Assembly: GCA_951406725.2 (NCBI GenBank)
Contig: OX597823.1
Coordinates: 70,866,001-70,930,000, forward strand
DNA: 64,000 bases
DNA from: Octopus vulgaris
Taxonomy: Eukaryota
Direction: 5' to 3'
Below the pieces are notes generated by a model, which worked only from the letters and a program-made list of their open reading frames with translations, did not search any database and had not been told where the DNA came from. Position numbers and translations under genes: made by a program. Shown one piece after another: positions 37,389 through 49,178 of the stretch. How positions within the stretch are numbered: the first letter of the stretch is position 1; each line of letters starts with the position of its first letter.

Positions 37389-40300
37389 TCAGAATTTGGG
37401 CACTATGGCCCACTCAAGTAGAGAGTTATTGTTTACAGAGACATATCCGGGTGTAGGGGGTTTATCCGGGATTTCTTGAAGGAATCTGTCCAAAGACTTC
37501 TTGAACCCTATAGGGTCAGTTTCTGTTTTAATGTGTTTTGGTGTAATGTTAAAGAGAGCGGGGCCAATTGAGGTGAAATAATTGTGCCGTATTGTTGTTA
37601 TGAGATGAGAGTGCGATTTTTGTTTTGGGCGGATGGCACGGGGCCCAAGCCTTGGATGTACCTTAAAGGTGATGCCAACATCATTTGGGCAATGCTGATG
37701 GAATATTTTCCACATCATGCAGATGATGTAGCGCTCACGACGACGTTGGAGAGAATAGAGTTTTAGCTTTTCTAGTCGACCCCAATAGTCGAGGCCTGTC
37801 ATGCCATCTATCTTTTTTGTGATTGCCCTTTGAGGTGCTTCGACTTTTATGATACCTTGTATTGTGTGGGGAGACCACAGTGGACAACAGTATTCAAGGT
37901 GGGGTCGGGCAAAAGTGGAGAAGAGAAGGATAATGGTGTGGATATCTCTCGACTGGAAAGTTCTGAGAATCCAGGAACACATTCTGCGGGCCATGTCAAC
38001 TTTGGTGTTTATATGAGTGGCCCAGCTTACGTTGTTGTCCACAATTACTCCCAAGTCTCTGATGTTGTTGGACGCCGTGAGAGTTTCACCTGAAGGAAGG
38101 GAGTATGGGAGTTTCAGGGCATCCTCTTTTCCAAAGTGGATTAGCTCAAATTTATCCTCGTTCAGCAGCATATTGTTTTTTTCTGCCCATTGGATAACAG
38201 CCAGTAGATCTGACTGAAGGCATGTCCGGTCACTCGCCTCATTTATGACCTTCTGTAGCTTGGAGTCATCTGCAAAGATTTTTATGTTGCTGTGCTTGAT
38301 GATGTCATTAATGTCATTAATGTAAATGATGAAAAGAAGTGGGCCCAGCACAGTGCCTTGCGGAACGCCACTACTGACTTTGGCTGGGCTTGATTTTACC
38401 CCTTCAACTACAACATGTTGAGATCTGTCTGTCAGGAAACACTTAATCCATTTCAGTAACTTTCCAGAGACACCAATGTTGGATAGTTTTTTCAATAGGA
38501 TCTTGTGATCGACCCTGTCGAAGGCCTTACTGAAATCAAGGTAGATGACATCGGTGTTGGAGCCCTCTCCCAAAGCTCTCAAAATGTCCTCAAAGTGATG
38601 CAGGAGCTGCGTTAGGCAGTCCCTTCCATTACGGAACCCATGTTGGTTGGAGATCAGCCGTCTGTTGCTTTCCAGAAATTGGGTTATTTGAGATCTCACC
38701 ACCCTCTCAAATACCTTGATGATATGAGAGGTGAGTGAGATCGGACGGTAATTCACTGCAAGGGACTTGTTTCCCTTTTTGAAAACTGGGACAACAGACT
38801 GGGACAGAAGGTTTTTTGGAATATAGCCAGCATCCAGTGAGTTTCTCCACAGATTAGCAAGGGGAGATGCAAGTTGGTGTCGACACACCTTCAGGACACA
38901 AGCAGGGAACCTATCGGGGCCTACTGCTGAATTGTGTTTTATTTCGTTTATCGCCGCTAAGACATCAGGGGCACTAAACGTTATGTCCGATATAGTGTGT
39001 TGGGGGTTGACATTACTGATACAGCCCAGATCGGCCATATCAGGATTGCTGAAAACAGAGCAGTATTGTTTCTGCAGTATCTCGGCCATGGATTTGGCAT
39101 TATCTTGGAGAGTGCCAGTTTCGTCAATTAGAGGGCCTACAGTGGAGACAGTGACCCTGCGTTTCCTCGCAAATGAAAAGAACACTTTGGGGTTGAGTTT
39201 GATTTTTTCAATGGCCCACTTCTCCTCAGCTGATCTTTGGTTATTGATGAGGGACTTCATGCATTGTTGGAGGTTATATTTTTTTGATTCAAGCAGTGCG
39301 ATAGCCGTCGAATGTGTGTGTTGCTGTTGGCAGTACTTTAGTTTGTTAATTTTTTTGTTTGTTCTTTTTATTTTTCTGATAATGGTTTTTCTGTTTTGGG
39401 GGATTCTGCACTTTTTGTTCACAGGTCTTGGTGGGGAGTGTTTTGCACATATGTCTGTGACGGTGTCTACAAAGATCTGCCAAGATGTTTTATGGTTGGT
39501 GGAGATGTGTGTATGTGTAAAGGACCAGTCAACATTTGATAGCTCGTTCCTGATTGCATCCCAGTTGGCTTTATGGAGATCCATGTTGTCAAATGGGTGG
39601 GCTGGAGGAAGGTCACTAGGATTAGCTTTCGGCTGGTGGAATTTCATGTTACAGAGAACCATGTCATGGTCTGAAAGAAGGGTTTTTTCCACTGTAACGT
39701 TATGTATAGTGTTAGTGTGGTTACTAAACACTAGGTCCAAAATGTTCTGATGTCTTGTTGGTGCAAGGACAAGTTGGGACAAGAAAAACTCATTCGTAAA
39801 GTCGAAAAGTGACTCTGCTGCTTCTTTGTCAGCGGTTGAGGCGGGAGTGCTTGGTTTCAAACAGTTTGTAGTCCAGTCAACACAGGGTAGATTGAAGTCT
39901 CCCATCATGAGTATGTTGCTAGAATGGCACTGTTGAATAAAGCACTTAATGCTGTTGAGGCATTCTTTAAAGCACAGTATGGGTGTTTGGGGCGGCCTAT
40001 AGAGTCCAATTACTGTCAGATCATTGGCTTTGTTGTGCACGGTGACTGATTCACAGTAGCCGTTGGAGAATATACTATTTCCATCTGCCGTAAATGAATC
40101 ATGCAGGAAAATGGCAGTTCCACCCTTCCTCCTGCCGATACGATCCGCGCGGATGGTTGTGAAATTCTTCACTCTCACTTCGGCTTCCAAGTGGGAGTTG
40201 TCAAGGTGGGTCTCAGTGAGAATGAAGAAAGGGATGTGGTGTGAATGGTTACCAACCCAGTCTTCAATGAATTGGACCTTCCATTTTTGTGCATTGATGG

Positions 40301-40628
40301 AAGGGCTGACACCTTGTGCATTGAGTAGGAATGTGGAGGTTAGTGTAGTGGCTGGTTTTGACTGTTGCAGGGGGCTTGGATTTTTTGTGTGTGTTAGTGG
40401 TAGCAATGTGGGGAATTGGTGCACTGGGGTAATAGCATAGGATGGTGTTGAGTGATGGCTAGAATGTTTTTGTGTATCTCTTTTGCCATGTTCAACATGG
40501 CTAAAAAGAATTTTCCTGCTTAGGGAGCAGTTTTTGGCTGGAGGTGTGGTTGCACTGTTGGATAGGGTTGTAGTTTCCACTTTTGTTGTTGTTGTTTTTG
40601 TGTCTTCCTGAAAAGACTGGACCAGCAT
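37389..40628 (-). CDS. LINE ORF2: APE endonuclease plus reverse transcriptase (1079 aa)
   Basis: APE motifs LTETHL, GDFNLP, LDLVF, SDHD; RT motifs YRPISLTS, QHGFR, LDFSKAFD, GVPQGTVLGP, FADD; CR1-type C-terminus RPHLEYC..WSP, LYSLQRRR. Confidence 0.97.
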   Translation of the reverse strand: MLVQSFQEDTKTTTTKVETTTLSNSATTPPAKNCSLSRKILFSHVEHGKRDTQKHSSHHSTPSYAITPVHQFPTLLPLTHTKNPSPLQQSKPATTLTSTFLLNAQGVSPSINAQKWKVQFIEDWVGNHSHHIPFFILTETHLDNSHLEAEVRVKNFTTIRADRIGRRKGGTAIFLHDSFTADGNSIFSNGYCESVTVHNKANDLTVIGLYRPPQTPILCFKECLNSIKCFIQQCHSSNILMMGDFNLPCVDWTTNCLKPSTPASTADKEAAESLFDFTNEFFLSQLVLAPTRHQNILDLVFSNHTNTIHNVTVEKTLLSDHDMVLCNMKFHQPKANPSDLPPAHPFDNMDLHKANWDAIRNELSNVDWSFTHTHISTNHKTSWQIFVDTVTDICAKHSPPRPVNKKCRIPQNRKTIIRKIKRTNKKINKLKYCQQQHTHSTAIALLESKKYNLQQCMKSLINNQRSAEEKWAIEKIKLNPKVFFSFARKRRVTVSTVGPLIDETGTLQDNAKSMAEILQKQYCSVFSNPDMADLGCISNVNPQHTISDITFSAPDVLAAINEIKHNSAVGPDRFPACVLKVCRHQLASPLANLWRNSLDAGYIPKNLLSQSVVPVFKKGNKSLAVNYRPISLTSHIIKVFERVVRSQITQFLESNRRLISNQHGFRNGRDCLTQLLHHFEDILRALGEGSNTDVIYLDFSKAFDRVDHKILLKKLSNIGVSGKLLKWIKCFLTDRSQHVVVEGVKSSPAKVSSGVPQGTVLGPLLFIIYINDINDIIKHSNIKIFADDSKLQKVINEASDRTCLQSDLLAVIQWAEKNNMLLNEDKFELIHFGKEDALKLPYSLPSGETLTASNNIRDLGVIVDNNVSWATHINTKVDMARRMCSWILRTFQSRDIHTIILLFSTFARPHLEYCCPLWSPHTIQGIIKVEAPQRAITKKIDGMTGLDYWGRLEKLKLYSLQRRRERYIICMMWKIFHQHCPNDVGITFKVHPRLGPRAIRPKQKSHSHLITTIRHNYFTSIGPALFNITPKHIKTETDPIGFKKSLDRFLQEIPDKPPTPGYVSVNNNSLLEWAIVPKF

Positions 40629-41619
40629 TACTGCAGCATGGTGTGTTTCTATTTTTATTGTTATTCAGGTTTGTGTGTTGGCTTGAGGCCCCGTTTCTGT
40701 TTGTGCGTCGGGTCCCTGGAAGATGAGTGAAGGGACAGTCACTCAGTAGACATGTTCTCTCACGTTGGGAATACCGGCAGATTTTGGGACTCCGAGTTGT
40801 GTGTGTTTTGAATTTCGATTTACTATTTGGTGGTGTTGATGTTATTGTGGGATGCGTGCTTTGGCCTTGGCCAGTAGTGCGTCTAGTGCCGGGTAGATGC
40901 GTGAAGATGCAGTCACTATTTGTGCAGAGTCTCTGGCGCAGTGAATAGCGGCATATTTGGGGATTTCTTGTTTGTGCCGTGGGGGGCGCATTCTGCTTCC
41001 TATGTTTCTTTAAGTTTTTGTTACTGCAGTAGTATTGAGGTGGTGATGTGGGGGAAGAGGGCAGTGGTTTCTTATTTGGTTTTCTGTTGGTATTTTTGGT
41101 GATAGAAGACGATGGTGGCAGCGGTGGTGATGATGATGATGATAATTGTGGTGGTTGCTGTGAGAGCGGTGAAAAGATACTGGCATTTAGTGAATCGTCT
41201 AGTAAGCTAGAGTTGAGGAGTGGCTGTTGTTGTTCTTGTTGCTGTGGCTGTTGTTGTTGTTGTTGTGCCTGACCGATGTCAGGGTCAGCCATTGTGTTGG
41301 GAACCAGGAGTGGCTCATTCTGTTGTTGTTGTTGTGGCTGCTGATTTTCTAGCTGTTGTTGTTCTTGAACTGTGAAAATATGTAGAAGCTTTTCATAATG
41401 GCCTCTTATCAGTTTGAAAGATACTTCGATATGTTTCAACTTGCTACGAATCTGTTTGACGGATCGTGTGTTGACCACTTGTGATGTTTTTTCGGCAATC
41501 TCATTCAAACACAAGACATTTAGATTTTCTGTTTGGGAAAGAGAGAGCCATGTGTTTATTAAAACATCAATTTCGTTATCAGACCAATTTCGTCTGTTGC
41601 AGGCCTGCAAGTTAGTCAT
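40501..41619 (-). CDS. LINE ORF1 (372 aa): Myb/SANT-like N-terminus, Q/P/S linker, two CCCH zinc fingers
   Basis: RRNWSDNEIDVLINTW...RSVKQIRSKLK; CRYSLRQRLCTNSDCIFTH and CRYSQRERTCLLSDCPFTH; lies directly upstream of ORF2. Confidence 0.8.
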   Translation of the reverse strand: MTNLQACNRRNWSDNEIDVLINTWLSLSQTENLNVLCLNEIAEKTSQVVNTRSVKQIRSKLKHIEVSFKLIRGHYEKLLHIFTVQEQQQLENQQPQQQQQNEPLLVPNTMADPDIGQAQQQQQQPQQQEQQQPLLNSSLLDDSLNASIFSPLSQQPPQLSSSSSPPLPPSSSITKNTNRKPNKKPLPSSPTSPPQYYCSNKNLKKHRKQNAPPTAQTRNPQICRYSLRQRLCTNSDCIFTHLPGTRRTTGQGQSTHPTITSTPPNSKSKFKTHTTRSPKICRYSQRERTCLLSDCPFTHLPGTRRTNRNGASSQHTNLNNNKNRNTPCCSNAGPVFSGRHKNNNNKSGNYNPIQQCNHTSSQKLLPKQENSF

Positions 41620-41940
41620 GTTTGTTTTTCTTTTGTTTGTTTTCCTTTTGATTTTTGAAAATATATATATTCTTTCTTGGGAGTTAAAGAAGTGTATATA
41701 TATATAAATGTTCTCTCTTAAGGGTGTGAGTTTTTGATTATTTGGTTGTTTGAGGATATTAAAAGAAAAACAGGTGTATATAACAATTTGTAGTTAAATG
41801 AAAACGTACTTACGGGTTTGTAGGCAAACACGTGGTTACAAATATATATATATTTAAGGTCAGTTAGTTTTGAAGCTGTGTAGCTTGCTACTGACTCGGG
41901 AGAGAAACAAATAGACGTCCGTCCAGTTCAACAGTTAATC

Positions 41941-43870: not shown

Positions 43871-44633
43871 TGTTGTGTATGTGTGTGTGTGTGTGTGTGT
43901 GTATACACACATACATATATTTACTGTTTATTTTCTCTTATTCCTTTCTATTGAAGAGCGTAGGTTCGAAACGTAAAAGACTTTTTCATATTCCCGAGCG
44001 TCAAACTAATACACTTGCTTGTTGTTCATGCACCTATCTTCGTCTTTTGTTTTTCTATAAGTTTCAACTATATATATATATATATATATAAATATATATG
44101 AGAAGTAATTAACATTCAGTTGAAATAGATATTTAATTTGAAGCACCAAGTCAGTCCGGTATTACCCGCACAGCTCAAACTAACGTGATTAAAATCAAAA
44201 TATGTAACAGGGTGCCAAGCACTAATGCAGTTTCAAGCGGGTTCATTTAACTGAACAAGACAATCATTATATCCATTTACATACAGTGCTATCTTCAGCA
44301 GCTCAAATATGGATTTTCAACAGACAAAATATATTAATATAATTTTTCTTAAATATTTTAACAGAGCATGAGGATGGAAGAATTTCATGTTGTCACTATT
44401 GTAACAAGAATAGCCAAGAGATCAACAAACTACAATTTTTAGAGTGGCATAGTACATAGTGGGTGTCATAGGGTTGTAACTAATTTCCAACTTATCTATC
44501 TCGTTATCATCCACAAAAACAGTCGTGCTGCATTTCTACTTGACTTCCTGTTACTTATTTCGATTACATATATATATATATATGTTTATTTATTTATTTA
44601 TATATATATGTATTTATATACACATATATATAA

Positions 44634-44666
<33 letters not shown>

Positions 44667-44835
44667 ACATAAGGGACTAAAGCCATCTGAATATGGCTAG
44701 GGACAGGGCAGGGTGGTGGGGGTGTTACTGTTGCATTTAGCCCCAGGCGAACATCGACGTCACCAGAAAGGCTCGACACCGTCACGGTGCCCTAAACCTG
44801 CAAAGGGAGGTAATTCCCCGATGAAGCGGAAACCA

Positions 44836-44881
44836 CACACGGACCATGGTTTCAAGGTGTATTGCCTATCATCGGCGTGTG
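44836..44881 (-). ncRNA. Hammerhead variant (CCGAUGA core), array copy 1
   Basis: cacacg CCGATGA t agg caataca cct t GAAA ccatgg TC cgtgtg. Confidence 0.65.
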
Positions 44882-45195
44882 GTAGGCCTCCGCTTCCTCG
44901 ACGAATTCTCCCTCTGCAGGATTTTCTTATATAGATTTTCAAGCAAAATACATTTGCTGATTTCGAAAATCTGTTCGAAAGCAATAATAATTCTCTAAAA
45001 GGGATATAGACAGTAACTGCTCGATAACATAAGGGACTAAAGCCATCTGAATATGGCTAGGGACAGGGCAGGGTGGTGGGGGTGTTACTGTTGCATTTAG
45101 CCCCAGGCGAACATCGACGTCACCAGAAAGGCTCGACACCGTCACGGTGCCCTAAACCTGCAAAGGGAGGTAATTCCCCGATGAAGCGGAAACCA

Positions 45196-45241
45196 CACAC
45201 GGACCATGGTTTCAAGGTGTATTGCCTATCATCGGCGTGTG
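45196..45241 (-). ncRNA. Hammerhead variant, array copy 2
   Basis: Identical to copy 1, 360 nt away. Confidence 0.65.
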
Positions 45242-45652
45242 GTAGGCCTCCGCTTCCTCGACGAATTCTCCCTCTGCAGGATTTTCTTATATAGATTTTC
45301 AAGCAAAATACATTTGCTGATTTCGAAAATCTGTTCGAAAGCAATAATAATTCTCTAAAAGGGATATAGACAGTAACTGCTCGATAACATAAGGGACTAA
45401 AGCCATCTGAATATGGCTAGGGACAGGGCAGGGTGGTGGGGGTGTTACTGTTGCATTTAGCCCCAGGCGAACATCGACGTCACCAGAAAGGCTCGACACC
45501 GTCACGGTGCCCTAAACCTGCAAAGGGAGGTAATTCCCCGATGAAGCGGAAACCACACACGGACCATGGTTTCAAGGTGTATGTATTTTGCTTGAAAATC
45601 TATATAAGAAAATCCTGCAGAGGGAGAATTCGTCGAGGAAGCGGAGGCCTAC

Positions 45653-45698
45653 CACACGCCGATGATAGGCAATACACCTTGAAACCATGGTCCGTGTG
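45653..45698 (+). ncRNA. Hammerhead variant, array copy 3
   Basis: Same motif on the plus strand; predicted cut after C45692. Confidence 0.65.
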
Positions 45699-46012
45699 TG
45701 GTTTCCGCTTCATCGGGGAATTACCTCCCTTTGCAGGTTTAGGGCACCGTGACGGTGTCGAGCCTTTCTGGTGACGTCGATGTTCGCCTGGGGCTAAATG
45801 CAACAGTAACACCCCCACCACCCTGCCCTGTCCCTAGCCATATTCAGATGGCTTTAGTCCCTTATGTTATCGAGGAGTTACTGTCTATATCCCTTTTAGA
45901 GAATTATTATTGCTTTCGAACAGATTTTCGAAATCAGCAAATGTATTTTGCTTGAAAATCTATATAAGAAAATCCTGCAGAGGGAGAATTCGTCGAGGAA
46001 GCGGAGGCCTAC

Positions 46013-46058
46013 CACACGCCGATGATAGGCAATACACCTTGAAACCATGGTCCGTGTG
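46013..46058 (+). ncRNA. Hammerhead variant, array copy 4
   Basis: Same motif; predicted cut after C46052. Confidence 0.65.
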
Positions 46059-46272
46059 TGGTTTCCGCTTCATCGGGGAATTACCTCCCTTTGCAGGTTT
46101 AGGGCACCGTGACGGTGTCGAGCCTTTCTGGTGACGTCGATGTTCGCCTGGGGCTAAATGCAACAGTAACACCCCCACCACCCTGCCCTGTCCCTAGCCA
46201 TATTCAGATGGCTTTAGTCCCTTATGTTATCGAGCAGTTACTGTCTATATCCCTTTTAGAGAATTATTATTG

Positions 46273-46315
<43 letters not shown>

Positions 46316-46331
46316 TATTTACATATATATA

Positions 46332-46368
<37 letters not shown>

Positions 46369-46371
<3 letters not shown>

Positions 46372-46570
46372 ATTGCAGCGTGGAAGGTGTTTATAAGCCA
46401 TTTAAGAAATACACAAAACCCGTTCGATTCACTTCAACATTTAAGTTTAATTTGTCAAAATATTTTCGTCGCTAAAATCCACGACCTGTTCACTGACAAA
46501 AATCCGTGCTGCATCTGAGAAAGTAACAGTTAGTTCGTCATATATATGTACGTATGTATGTGTATGTATG
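46369..46570 (-). repeat. Left inverted arm (family G) around the Penelope fragment
   Basis: Reverse complement of about 48923-49119; also matches 60680-60830. Confidence 0.9.
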
Positions 46571-47455
46571 CATACACATATGTATGCATGTATGTGTGTA
46601 TGTATGTATGTATGTATGCATGTACGTACATACGCCTGTGTATGCATGTATGTATGTATGTATATATGTATGTGTGTGTATACGCACGCACATGCACACT
46701 ATAAACATAAAGCTATAAACCTGTAGTGATGGCTAGATGTAGAGTGACCACTCATCATAATGATATCAAATTTCAACTTCCACCGCCGAAGCCAGGAAGT
46801 GATTTACGACCCTCACTCCCAAAACTATACCCTAAAACCTATTATCAGATATTTATCTCTATATCACAGAACTTTTGTTTTACTATTGTGCGTATGTATG
46901 TATGTATGTATGTATGTATGTATGTATGTATGTATGTATGTATGTATGTATGTATGTATGTGTGTGTGTATGTACATACGTACGCATGTGCGTATGTATG
47001 TATACGCGCACGTATGCATGTGCCCATGTATGTGTGTGCGTACATGTACGTGCGTATGTACGTGTGTATGCCCATACGTAGGTATGTATGTATGTTTGTA
47101 TTCATGTGCTACGTATGTATGTGAGTGTCTAGGAGAATGGGCAGATGTGTCCGTGAGAGTGTGTACATGTGTATGTGTATGTGAACGTATGTCCGTGTAC
47201 TGGCATGTGTCCGTCCAAGTTGTGTACATGACTGTTACTTTGTTGAAGGTTGTATACATATTCACATATATGTTTGTATAGCCGCACACACATATATATA
47301 TATATGTGTGGGTGTGTGTTTGTTCCTCTCATCACCGTCTAACCGTGAATGGATACAACGCCTAAGTGCAACTGTACGTATCAAACAACGTACGCTCATA
47401 CGGTTATATATAACTGCACATACGCATTGCAACCTGTATGTAAGGACTACAAGTA

Positions 47456-47521
<66 letters not shown>

Positions 47522-47523
47522 GG

Positions 47524-48922
47524 TTATAGAATAGTCCTTCTGAATGGGATCTGGATGTTATTCCATTCGAATTTTCGGTTGAGAGTAGGTTTGTATTCTT
47601 GTATACAAACAGCTTCTGTGACCTGTCTCAACATTGCATCGGTGGGATGTGTTGATAGGATGTTCAACTTAAGTTTCCCTAAGGATCCCTTGTGGCAGTC
47701 TACAGCATGTTGGTAGAAGATGGAGTTTGGCTTCCTTTCAATGTAGTTGTCCAGGTGTTCTTTGAACCTATCATTGATGCTTCTAGAAGTCTCACCTATG
47801 TATGACTCTGGGTTAGTCGCGCAAGCTCCCTCCTGGCACTTAATCTGGTATACAGTGCCCTTGGTTTTACAATTTACATGTGGATTTGTCGAACATATTG
47901 CGCAATTACTTTGACAGGTGATTCTATCAAATGGATATGATCTGCATAATGCCGATTTGATAGTCCTACCTGTCTTTTCTACAACTTTAATTTTTAGGCC
48001 AGTAGTGCGCAGGATTTTCTTGAATGCCTTACTTAGCTCGTTCTTAGGTGTGGCGTCAACGAACATTACTCCGTGAAATCTCCTGTTATCGTACCAAGTA
48101 ACGTTTCTCATCCTTTTGTTGGTGTCCCTCTCTAACCTATTCCAGAACTTGTTGCGGTATAGGGGGCATATACCGTTTTCGTCGTTCCTTAGAATGCGTT
48201 CAAATCTAGCTTTCGCTCTTATTGTACACCCTGACTCTATCGTCTTGTGTGTATCCGGAGCGTTGCATTTGGAATATGTAGTGCTGGATGTGTTATTGTC
48301 GTTCTTGTGGTTGGCATAGTGGTGATACATTCCTCATTACTCTAATTAAATCTGCCACTAGGATGTTGAGTTTGGCAGTATCCGACATAACTGAGTCACT
48401 ACGGATTACTAGTGGATTAGCCATCGGTTTCTGATAGTGTGAGTGGAGTATACAGGGTTTAATGGTTCCATTAACCATAGCATCTTCCATCCATAGCTCA
48501 GTATCTAGGACGGGTAATCGTTTACTGGGGTGTTTAGAGGGGTAGTCTATGGTAAATTTTATACTGCTGTGGATAGAGTCAGCTATGTGTTGTATAGATG
48601 TCATCACCTGTTCTTCACTTGGTAGAGGGCCCATAACTGTGTCTGTATTATATTTCACAAGGTTAATGTCGTCGACGTAACGAGAGTACATAGCCAAGTG
48701 GATGTTACGGTTTGCTAGGCACTGTTTAAAATGTTTGTCCCCCCATACCATGAAGAGGTTTGCAACGTCACCGGCGATCCCCACTCCAATAGCACCGCCT
48801 TTCGTCTGCCGATACAGTTTGTTGTCAAACTTAAAATTATGTGTTTTTAGCGTAAATCTCAGGCTTACACCGATAGCATGTGCTATGGTGGTTCTAATAT
48901 CAAGTGCACTTGACATTAGAAC
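47524..48922 (-). pseudogene. Penelope-like element RT (C-terminal half) plus GIY-YIG endonuclease, frameshifted
   Basis: FKFDNKLYRQTKGGAIG, RYVDDI, LPVLD; Cys-rich linker CQSNCAIC..NCK (Neptune-like); VYQIKC..YIGETSRSINDRFKEH..EAVCI..KPTLN; frameshift near 48300-48330. Confidence 0.92.
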
Positions 48923-49175
48923 CATACATACACACATACATACGTACATATATATGACGAACTAACTGTTACTTTCTCAGATGCAGCACGGATTTTTGTC
49001 AGTGAACAGGTCGCGGATTTTAGCGACGAAAATATTTCGACAAATTAAACTTAAATGTTGAAGTGAATCGAACGGCGTTTGTGTGTTTCTTAAATGGCTT
49101 ATAAACACCTTCCACGCTGTTTTCGTTTCAGCACACTATCTCAGATCAAATTACTTGCCATGCGAGTACATCTCC

Positions 49176-49178
<3 letters not shown>
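48923..49178 (+). repeat. Right inverted arm (family G) with tail
   Basis: Inverted partner of 46369-46570; the tail is shared with 60930-60990. Confidence 0.9.

Follow-up and report, generated by a model that had tools for sequence, protein, structure and literature searches.

A 360-nt retrozyme-type element of Octopus vulgaris inserted as two head-to-head arms, likely by Penelope-like machinery

Animal non-LTR retrozymes have been reported from coral, Mytilus (350-390 bp) and axolotl (330/350 bp) (PMC7229834; bioRxiv 10.64898/2026.07.22.740005). Their text descriptions show non-coding tandem monomers of a few hundred nt with one type-I hammerhead each, a palindromic short helix III, a strongly self-paired monomer and duplications of >4 bp, in genomes that also contain Penelope-like elements (PLEs), and the octopus element analysed here shares these features. 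The spread of animal retrozymes has so far been argued from co-occurrence and from pLTR similarity. According to the text of a 2020 review, retrozyme repeats show no motif indicating a helper (PMC7761336). Li et al. report, in their main text, a pLTR homologue for 21 of 57 Xenopus families, whereas for the octopus monomer none was detected in the 100 PLE-search loci compared (10.64898/2026.07.22.740005). Note that 8 of 9 predicted Xenopus retrozyme dimers failed to cleave in vitro, as stated in the same text (bioRxiv 10.64898/2026.07.22.740005).

The PLEs leave a recognizable insertion: according to the text of PMC8557442, the tail is confined to one end, the inverted copy is 5'-truncated, and targets are biased towards (TA)n. 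As the text of PMC11167929 presents it, the anole PLE protein cuts and extends in vitro both strands of AT-rich DNA, its RT begins at two internal RNA sites, and the tail equals the distance between these starts. The hammerhead of this element cleaves only with the protein, and its cleavage is dispensable for insertion, unprocessed RNA being used (PMC11167929, main text).

The window, a 64-kb stretch on contig C10 of the 2.8-Gb assembly that was searched, carries at 44664-46274 two mutually inverted blocks of one 360-bp unit. An earlier note on this DNA had described an exact 360-bp period, about 4.5 copies, one substitution and an insertion into (TA)n. We recovered all of these: the period is exactly 360 bp in both blocks, the copies sum to 4.48 (2.55 + 1.93), and (TA)n flanks the array on both sides. 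The title of the note, 'tandem', holds for the 360-bp repeat but not for the array, which consists of two head-to-head arms and not of a single tandem run; its text had placed hammerheads 'on each strand'. Monomer position 1 is the first base past the predicted cleavage site, and the hammerhead strand is taken as sense. The features of the locus are as follows.

44568 to 44663, no strand: left half of the (TA)n target microsatellite
44664 to 45582, minus strand (hammerhead-sense): left arm, 2.55 monomers, units 100% identical; 5' end at monomer position 340, 3' end at position 178 (type-A end)
44836 to 44881, minus strand: hammerhead motif, predicted cut after 44842
45196 to 45241, minus strand: hammerhead motif, predicted cut after 45202
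45581 to 45582, no strand: head-to-head junction with 2-nt microhomology (AT)
45581 to 46274, plus strand (hammerhead-sense): right arm, 1.93 monomers; 5' end at monomer position 249, 3' end at position 222 (type-B end)
45653 to 45698, plus strand: type-I hammerhead motif, predicted cut after 45692
45875, plus strand: sole substitution of the insertion, in the right arm and private to one unit
46013 to 46058, plus strand: second hammerhead motif, predicted cut after 46052
46231 to 46274, plus strand: PLE-type 'tail' of 44 nt, monomer positions 179-222, at the right end only
46275 to 46367, no strand: right half of the (TA)n target microsatellite

The 5' ends of both arms meet centrally and both 3' ends face into (TA)n. 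The 360-bp monomer has a GC content of 47%, within the range of animal non-LTR retrozymes (150-450 bp, GC below 50%), and is strongly self-paired, with a folding z of -5.4 as a linear molecule and, folded as a circle, of -5.0 (sense) and -2.3 (antisense). No long ORF is present, the longest ATG frame in the array having 35 codons, in agreement with the absence of credible coding potential that had been noted, and no tRNA head was found on the element. At the level of sequence the element corresponds to an animal non-LTR retrozyme as this class is defined in the text of PMC7229834, 10.64898/2026.07.22.740005 and PMC7761336, which is the type of element that had been proposed.

The family is young, dispersed, non-coding and without LTRs. 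The monomer search, with 40 of 588 candidates scored, gave at least 269 matches, most of the listed ones at 98-100%, and the exact junction between position 178 and TA occurs at 526 sites genome-wide. The many dispersed short arrays that had been predicted are thus found. Two samples were analysed: 55 loci chosen by best score or core pattern, and 61 insertions in 60 regions chosen by A junction among the 100 listed. Excluded before counting were alignments below 90% identity, one local duplicate (L048) and a third arm adjacent to the L236 insertion. Arms reach 14.4-14.7 units; in the A-junction sample, 30/116 arms are longer than one unit and 6/116 longer than two.

All two-armed insertions are head-to-head, 41/41 in the first sample and 51/51 in the second, which was picked on the A end. 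With the A end defined as positions 172-179 and the B end as 217-225 (first sample) or 215-225 (second), one A and one B end are paired in 38 + 48 = 86 of the 92 insertions; two alike were seen in 0/92, and one end was off in 6/92. Of the 14 single-arm loci in the first sample, 10 have an A end, 3 have a B end and the remaining one ends elsewhere; the second sample contains 10 single arms. The outer 3' ends are fixed at about 178 and 222, a spacing of 44 nt, variation being restricted to the inner 5' ends; judged from loci with little TA overlap, the true outer ends lie near 174-175 and 221. Because the A and B ends are fixed, the permuted ends that had been expected fail for the outer ends, and fixed internal starts plus truncation, instead of rolling alone, account for the partial terminal units. 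A sister family (78% identical) uses both same ends, and the 44-nt tail is the best-conserved segment across sister families, including a relative of about 61%. At 7 non-TA targets, target duplications measure 12-15 nt raw, including 1-4 nt common to the element. The inner ends cluster at positions 31-60 (31/115), at a strong stem, and the central junctions are enriched in microhomology.

As occurs with EN+ PLEs of the Neptune/Naiad type (PMC8557442) and with the anole Poseidon element PAc (PMC11167929), both as described in the text of these papers, the octopus insertions show a one-end tail, an inverted 5'-truncated copy, a (TA)n target and two RT start sites with a hammerhead upstream of them. 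By analogy with these elements, the 44-nt offset, the inverted arm, the 12-15-nt duplications and the TA target are the signature of PLE insertion. This anatomy of tail, inverted arm and (TA)n target bears out the involvement of a Penelope-like RT that had been suggested, and we consider it highly probable that the retrozyme uses PLE machinery. The octopus element differs from the EN+ PLEs in having many whole units per arm and no RT/GIY-YIG ORF in the monomer, so it is not an autonomous PLE. Its tail has 44 nt, compared to the 30-40 nt given for EN+ PLE tails in the published text. Moreover, PAc showed no difference between the strands in start site in vitro, whereas the octopus insertions follow a strict one-A-one-B rule (PMC11167929, main text).

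The insertion ends supply a direct PLE footprint that names the RNA start sites, which makes the rolling-circle model testable with one purified protein and one RNA. L1 twin priming likewise gives head-to-head products in which both 3' ends face outward and the junction shows microhomology. It differs from the octopus pattern, in which both primings are at fixed internal sites and no poly(A) is present; furthermore, L1 arms cover successive segments, whereas the octopus arms overlap in template sequence. Twin fixed 3' ends and head-to-head arms were not found in the text consulted on animal retrozymes, and neither an octopus retrozyme nor PLE-type twin ends in retrozyme insertions are described in the literature text searched, although figures and supplements may hold such data. 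The additions made here are the rule of one A and one B end, based on 92 insertions, the series of core variants and the negative partner search.

Every full monomer carries one type-I hammerhead motif, in a single polarity, which gives four full motifs at the locus. Their cores start at 45659 and 46019 (plus strand) and at 45235 and 44875 (minus strand), matching the description of one motif per monomer and two per strand, 360 nt apart, and the GUC sites end at C45692 and C46052, where the cuts had been predicted. The motif consists of a 6-bp helix I extended past an internal loop, a CCGAUGA core, GAAA, a GUC site, a helix II made of a U·U at its base plus 3 bp, and a 2-bp helix III of the self-complementary (palindromic) sequence ACCAUGGU. 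Present from the consensus are the C3-G8 pair, G5 and A6, A9, GAAA, A15.1-U16.1 and an NUH site. The departures are the core CCGAUGA instead of CUGAUGA (U4C) and U·U at 10.1/11.1 instead of G10.1-C11.1; the U·U at the base of helix II is also found in axolotl HHR_Amex2, as described in the text on that element. No Rfam hammerhead model matched the motif, neither at the gathering score nor at E<=10. The exact U4C core of the youngest subfamily has 814 matches genome-wide, against 0 for the canonical U4 pattern and 0 for a reversed control pattern. Since the reversed control gave 0 versus 814 and the monomer folds so strongly, the core is not due to chance.

The core varies among subfamilies. 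An older one has CCGACGA (405 matches to a pattern that also permits canonical U4, with 99 of the 100 listed being CCGACGA), another has UUGAYRA (257 exact matches), and in the sister family the core is UUGACAA and helix II has its full 4 bp. More than 1,200 copies in the genome carry the fixed U4C. Covariation across subfamilies is seen in helix I, in the 3-8 pair and in the palindromic helix III. Among 11 hand-picked variants, helix I shows a compensatory C-G to U-A change and the 3-8 pair is U-A in 6, U·G in 3 and C-G in 2; the covariation score was attained by 2/500 shuffles, which, the rows being related, is support and not a probability. The helix III palindrome is kept through double changes as CCAUGG, CCUAGG or CCGG, with the exception of a CCAG variant in 9 overlapping sister-family records.

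According to the text of PMC4209133, metazoan hammerheads that act as dimers are marked by a short, palindromic helix III. In the text of PMC3088659, U3-A8 and U10.1·U11.1 are tolerated natural variants, while U4C much reduces activity in vitro, yet one viroid is viable with it; the octopus core carries the same change as this viroid, but fixed in retroelement copies. Unlike the published animal retrozymes, the octopus one has the U4C core. By predicted energies, the hammerhead fold is less stable than the local minimum by 7.4 kcal/mol, and a trans duplex through helix III is worth about -12.6 kcal/mol. Because the motif is a weakened variant (U4C), efficient cleavage is not to be assumed, and we infer a real but weak ribozyme whose predicted activity would likely depend on a dimer or on protein. 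Since older subfamilies spread with a U3·G8 wobble, spread may not need a good ribozyme, and this natural series of core variants is a test of the ribozyme activity that such an element requires.

The U4C core (monomer positions 327-333) has its exact complement at positions 18-24, a short distance downstream of the cut site. In two insertions (L234 and L238) the arms are joined at this complementary segment. Speculatively, the complement could have templated the UU-to-CC change. A role of this 'anti-core' at 18-24 as a blocking helix was rejected, its pairing probability being near 0 and covariation with the core being absent. A second hammerhead on the antisense strand was also discarded, as it is the complement of the 18-24 segment and its helices are not credible. 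Older dispersed families (L070-L088) have a canonical CUGAUGA core with helix III as in the monomer (19 exact matches), and about 60% similarity to the 360-nt monomer in 3 loci.

Taken together, the array is probably a single recent insertion of a 360-nt animal non-LTR retrozyme, likely written by a PLE and probably from a circle. In the mechanism that we propose, read-through transcripts of arrays would undergo slow cleavage, in which the hammerheads probably act as dimers formed through the palindromic helix III, and the released monomers would be ligated into circles. A PLE RT/GIY-YIG protein, supplied in trans, would nick AT-rich DNA in both strands, the nicks being separated by about 10-12 bp. 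Each nick would then prime a reverse transcription that begins inside the RNA, at about 175-178 for one and at about 221-222 for the other. That one A and one B start are always used suggests a protein dimer on one RNA. Each cDNA would extend for between a fraction of a turn and about 15 turns, with a frequent stall at the strong stem (positions 14-60), and the two cDNAs would be joined by microhomology. More tentatively, a PLE-type dimer may grip the circle at two points 44 nt apart and roll one RT per target strand, the ribozyme having been detuned stepwise (U3-A8, U3·G8, C3-G8 + U4C) until it cuts only in dimeric form or when assisted by the protein, which would spare circles as templates.

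As template we lean towards a circular monomer RNA. Multi-copy variants are fixed within a locus in 130 cases and partial in 13; the divergence between arms is 0.24% within loci versus 2.3% between loci, and arm pairs are identical in 47/77 cases within loci versus 7% between loci. One haplotype per locus fits a one-monomer (circular) template, without proving it. Internal priming explains the use of a template without a 3' end: since the internal starts need no RNA 3' end, a circle would be usable as template. Reverse transcription crosses the cleavage site, as had been supposed, with 352 arrivals and 4 stops (2.2 expected); a pile-up of 5' ends at this site was rejected as not significant (p = 0.18). 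Four sequencing runs without an RNA record were assembled and 2/4 gave a closed 390-nt (360+30) contig, which is not usable as evidence because a circle, a tandem transcript and tandem DNA all yield one.

An unlikely alternative is that PLE machinery copied an uncut linear multimeric read-through RNA, the hammerhead being a decaying pLTR remnant and the long arrays arising by DNA-level amplification or conversion. The core does drift into damaged forms (U3·G8, U4C) as the family spreads, the anole PLE inserts in vitro without cleavage according to the text of PMC11167929, and local tandem expansion is favoured in the text of Li et al. (bioRxiv 10.64898/2026.07.22.740005). Unit-specific variants also agree with such a template: in L059 and L055 a variant occupies the matching unit of both arms, L038 has a period-5 pattern, and L038 and L063 are mosaics. 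Partial variants and mosaics fit a multimeric template or later gene conversion better than a monomer circle, and assembly could give them. However, the variants fixed in all units of both arms would need a one-monomer bottleneck, and the helix III palindrome survives double changes. Copying with 5' truncation only shortens arrays, yet the youngest subfamily has the longest; on contig C1 there are 83 cores in 18 loci for the youngest core, 48 in 18 for the next and 23 in 17 for the oldest, a rise that reflects either arrays collapsing with age or a young variant copied for more turns. Nor is a master block evident: contig C1 makes up 8% of the genome and has 10% of the cores, although arrays may be collapsed in the assembly.

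The second arm and the 44-nt tail could instead arise if one cDNA folded back and an endonuclease resolved a DNA intermediate, which we regard as very unlikely. Both 5' ends lie within 10 nt in monomer position at 17/92 loci (5.8% expected, p = 2e-5) and junction overlaps of at least 3 nt occur in 21/92 (about 5% expected), as fold-back would predict, but shared stalls and cDNA annealing at RNA hairpins account for these data too. Craig et al. assign the tail to EN-mediated resolution in their text (PMC8557442), whereas in vitro the tail is the distance separating two RT starts, as reported in the text of PMC11167929. Moreover, the arms can differ by several kb either way (5185/885 and 3025/5304 nt), which is impossible for a fold-back copy. 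Finally, a DNA-level repeat (satellite, foldback or Helitron-type) or an assembly artefact, with a hammerhead likeness by chance, would agree with the lack of an Rfam match and with palindromes and microsatellites being hard to assemble. Against it, 116 insertions spread over many contigs obey the same end rule, which speaks against a single locus or an assembly artefact, the outcomes that the earlier note had named as fatal to its reading; target duplications, 5' truncation, strict polarity and covarying hammerhead helices also contradict it. This reading is largely refuted and extremely improbable.

We also searched for the PLE that could act as partner of the retrozyme. A broken Neptune-like PLE (46369-49178) adjoins the array in the same TA tract; it is two-armed, has a 59-nt tail and carries an RT YVDD motif, a Cys linker and GIY-YIG, and its family has several long-ORF copies. 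This copy was rejected as partner, as only the microsatellite is common to it and the array. Two very young EN+ PLE families (L149-L151; L274-L283) are intact, with a TA target and two-end tails: one has a 1312-aa single ORF (tail about 56-59 nt), the other a 781-aa RT-EN ORF (about 38 nt). The 781-aa family also has an upstream ORF and a U3-A8 hammerhead motif in its pLTR, and its tail loosely resembles that of the sister family. No pLTR similarity to the monomer was detected by blastn in 100 PLE-search loci (150 of 4745 and 150 of 6136 candidates scored). The three young PLE families were rejected as partner for want of blastn similarity to the monomer, and the tails of the 1312-aa and 781-aa families are not of 44 nt. 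A 61% match next to a PLE (L284) turned out to be an old, separate fragment of a sister family. When two PLE proteins were compared by tblastn with the family loci, 11 loci matched; at the family-A loci among these, the array stops at TA or at ordinary flanking DNA instead of PLE sequence.

Another PLE family (L284:4799 region, L287) has a pLTR hammerhead motif in which U4C occurs together with a palindromic helix III, which suggests that this change has recurred independently in the genome. The 35-codon ATG frame of the array (45848-45952, plus strand; monomer 156-260) covers both proposed RT start positions, is open for about 30 codons in the sister family and has a geometry like that of a PLE ORF start. 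It was rejected as a remnant of such a start, since it gave no protein match in what is a weak test. Elsewhere in the window, a young LINE with two ORFs occupies 37389-41793 on the minus strand; its endonuclease-RT frame is open over 1091 aa, and a frame of 430 aa lies upstream.
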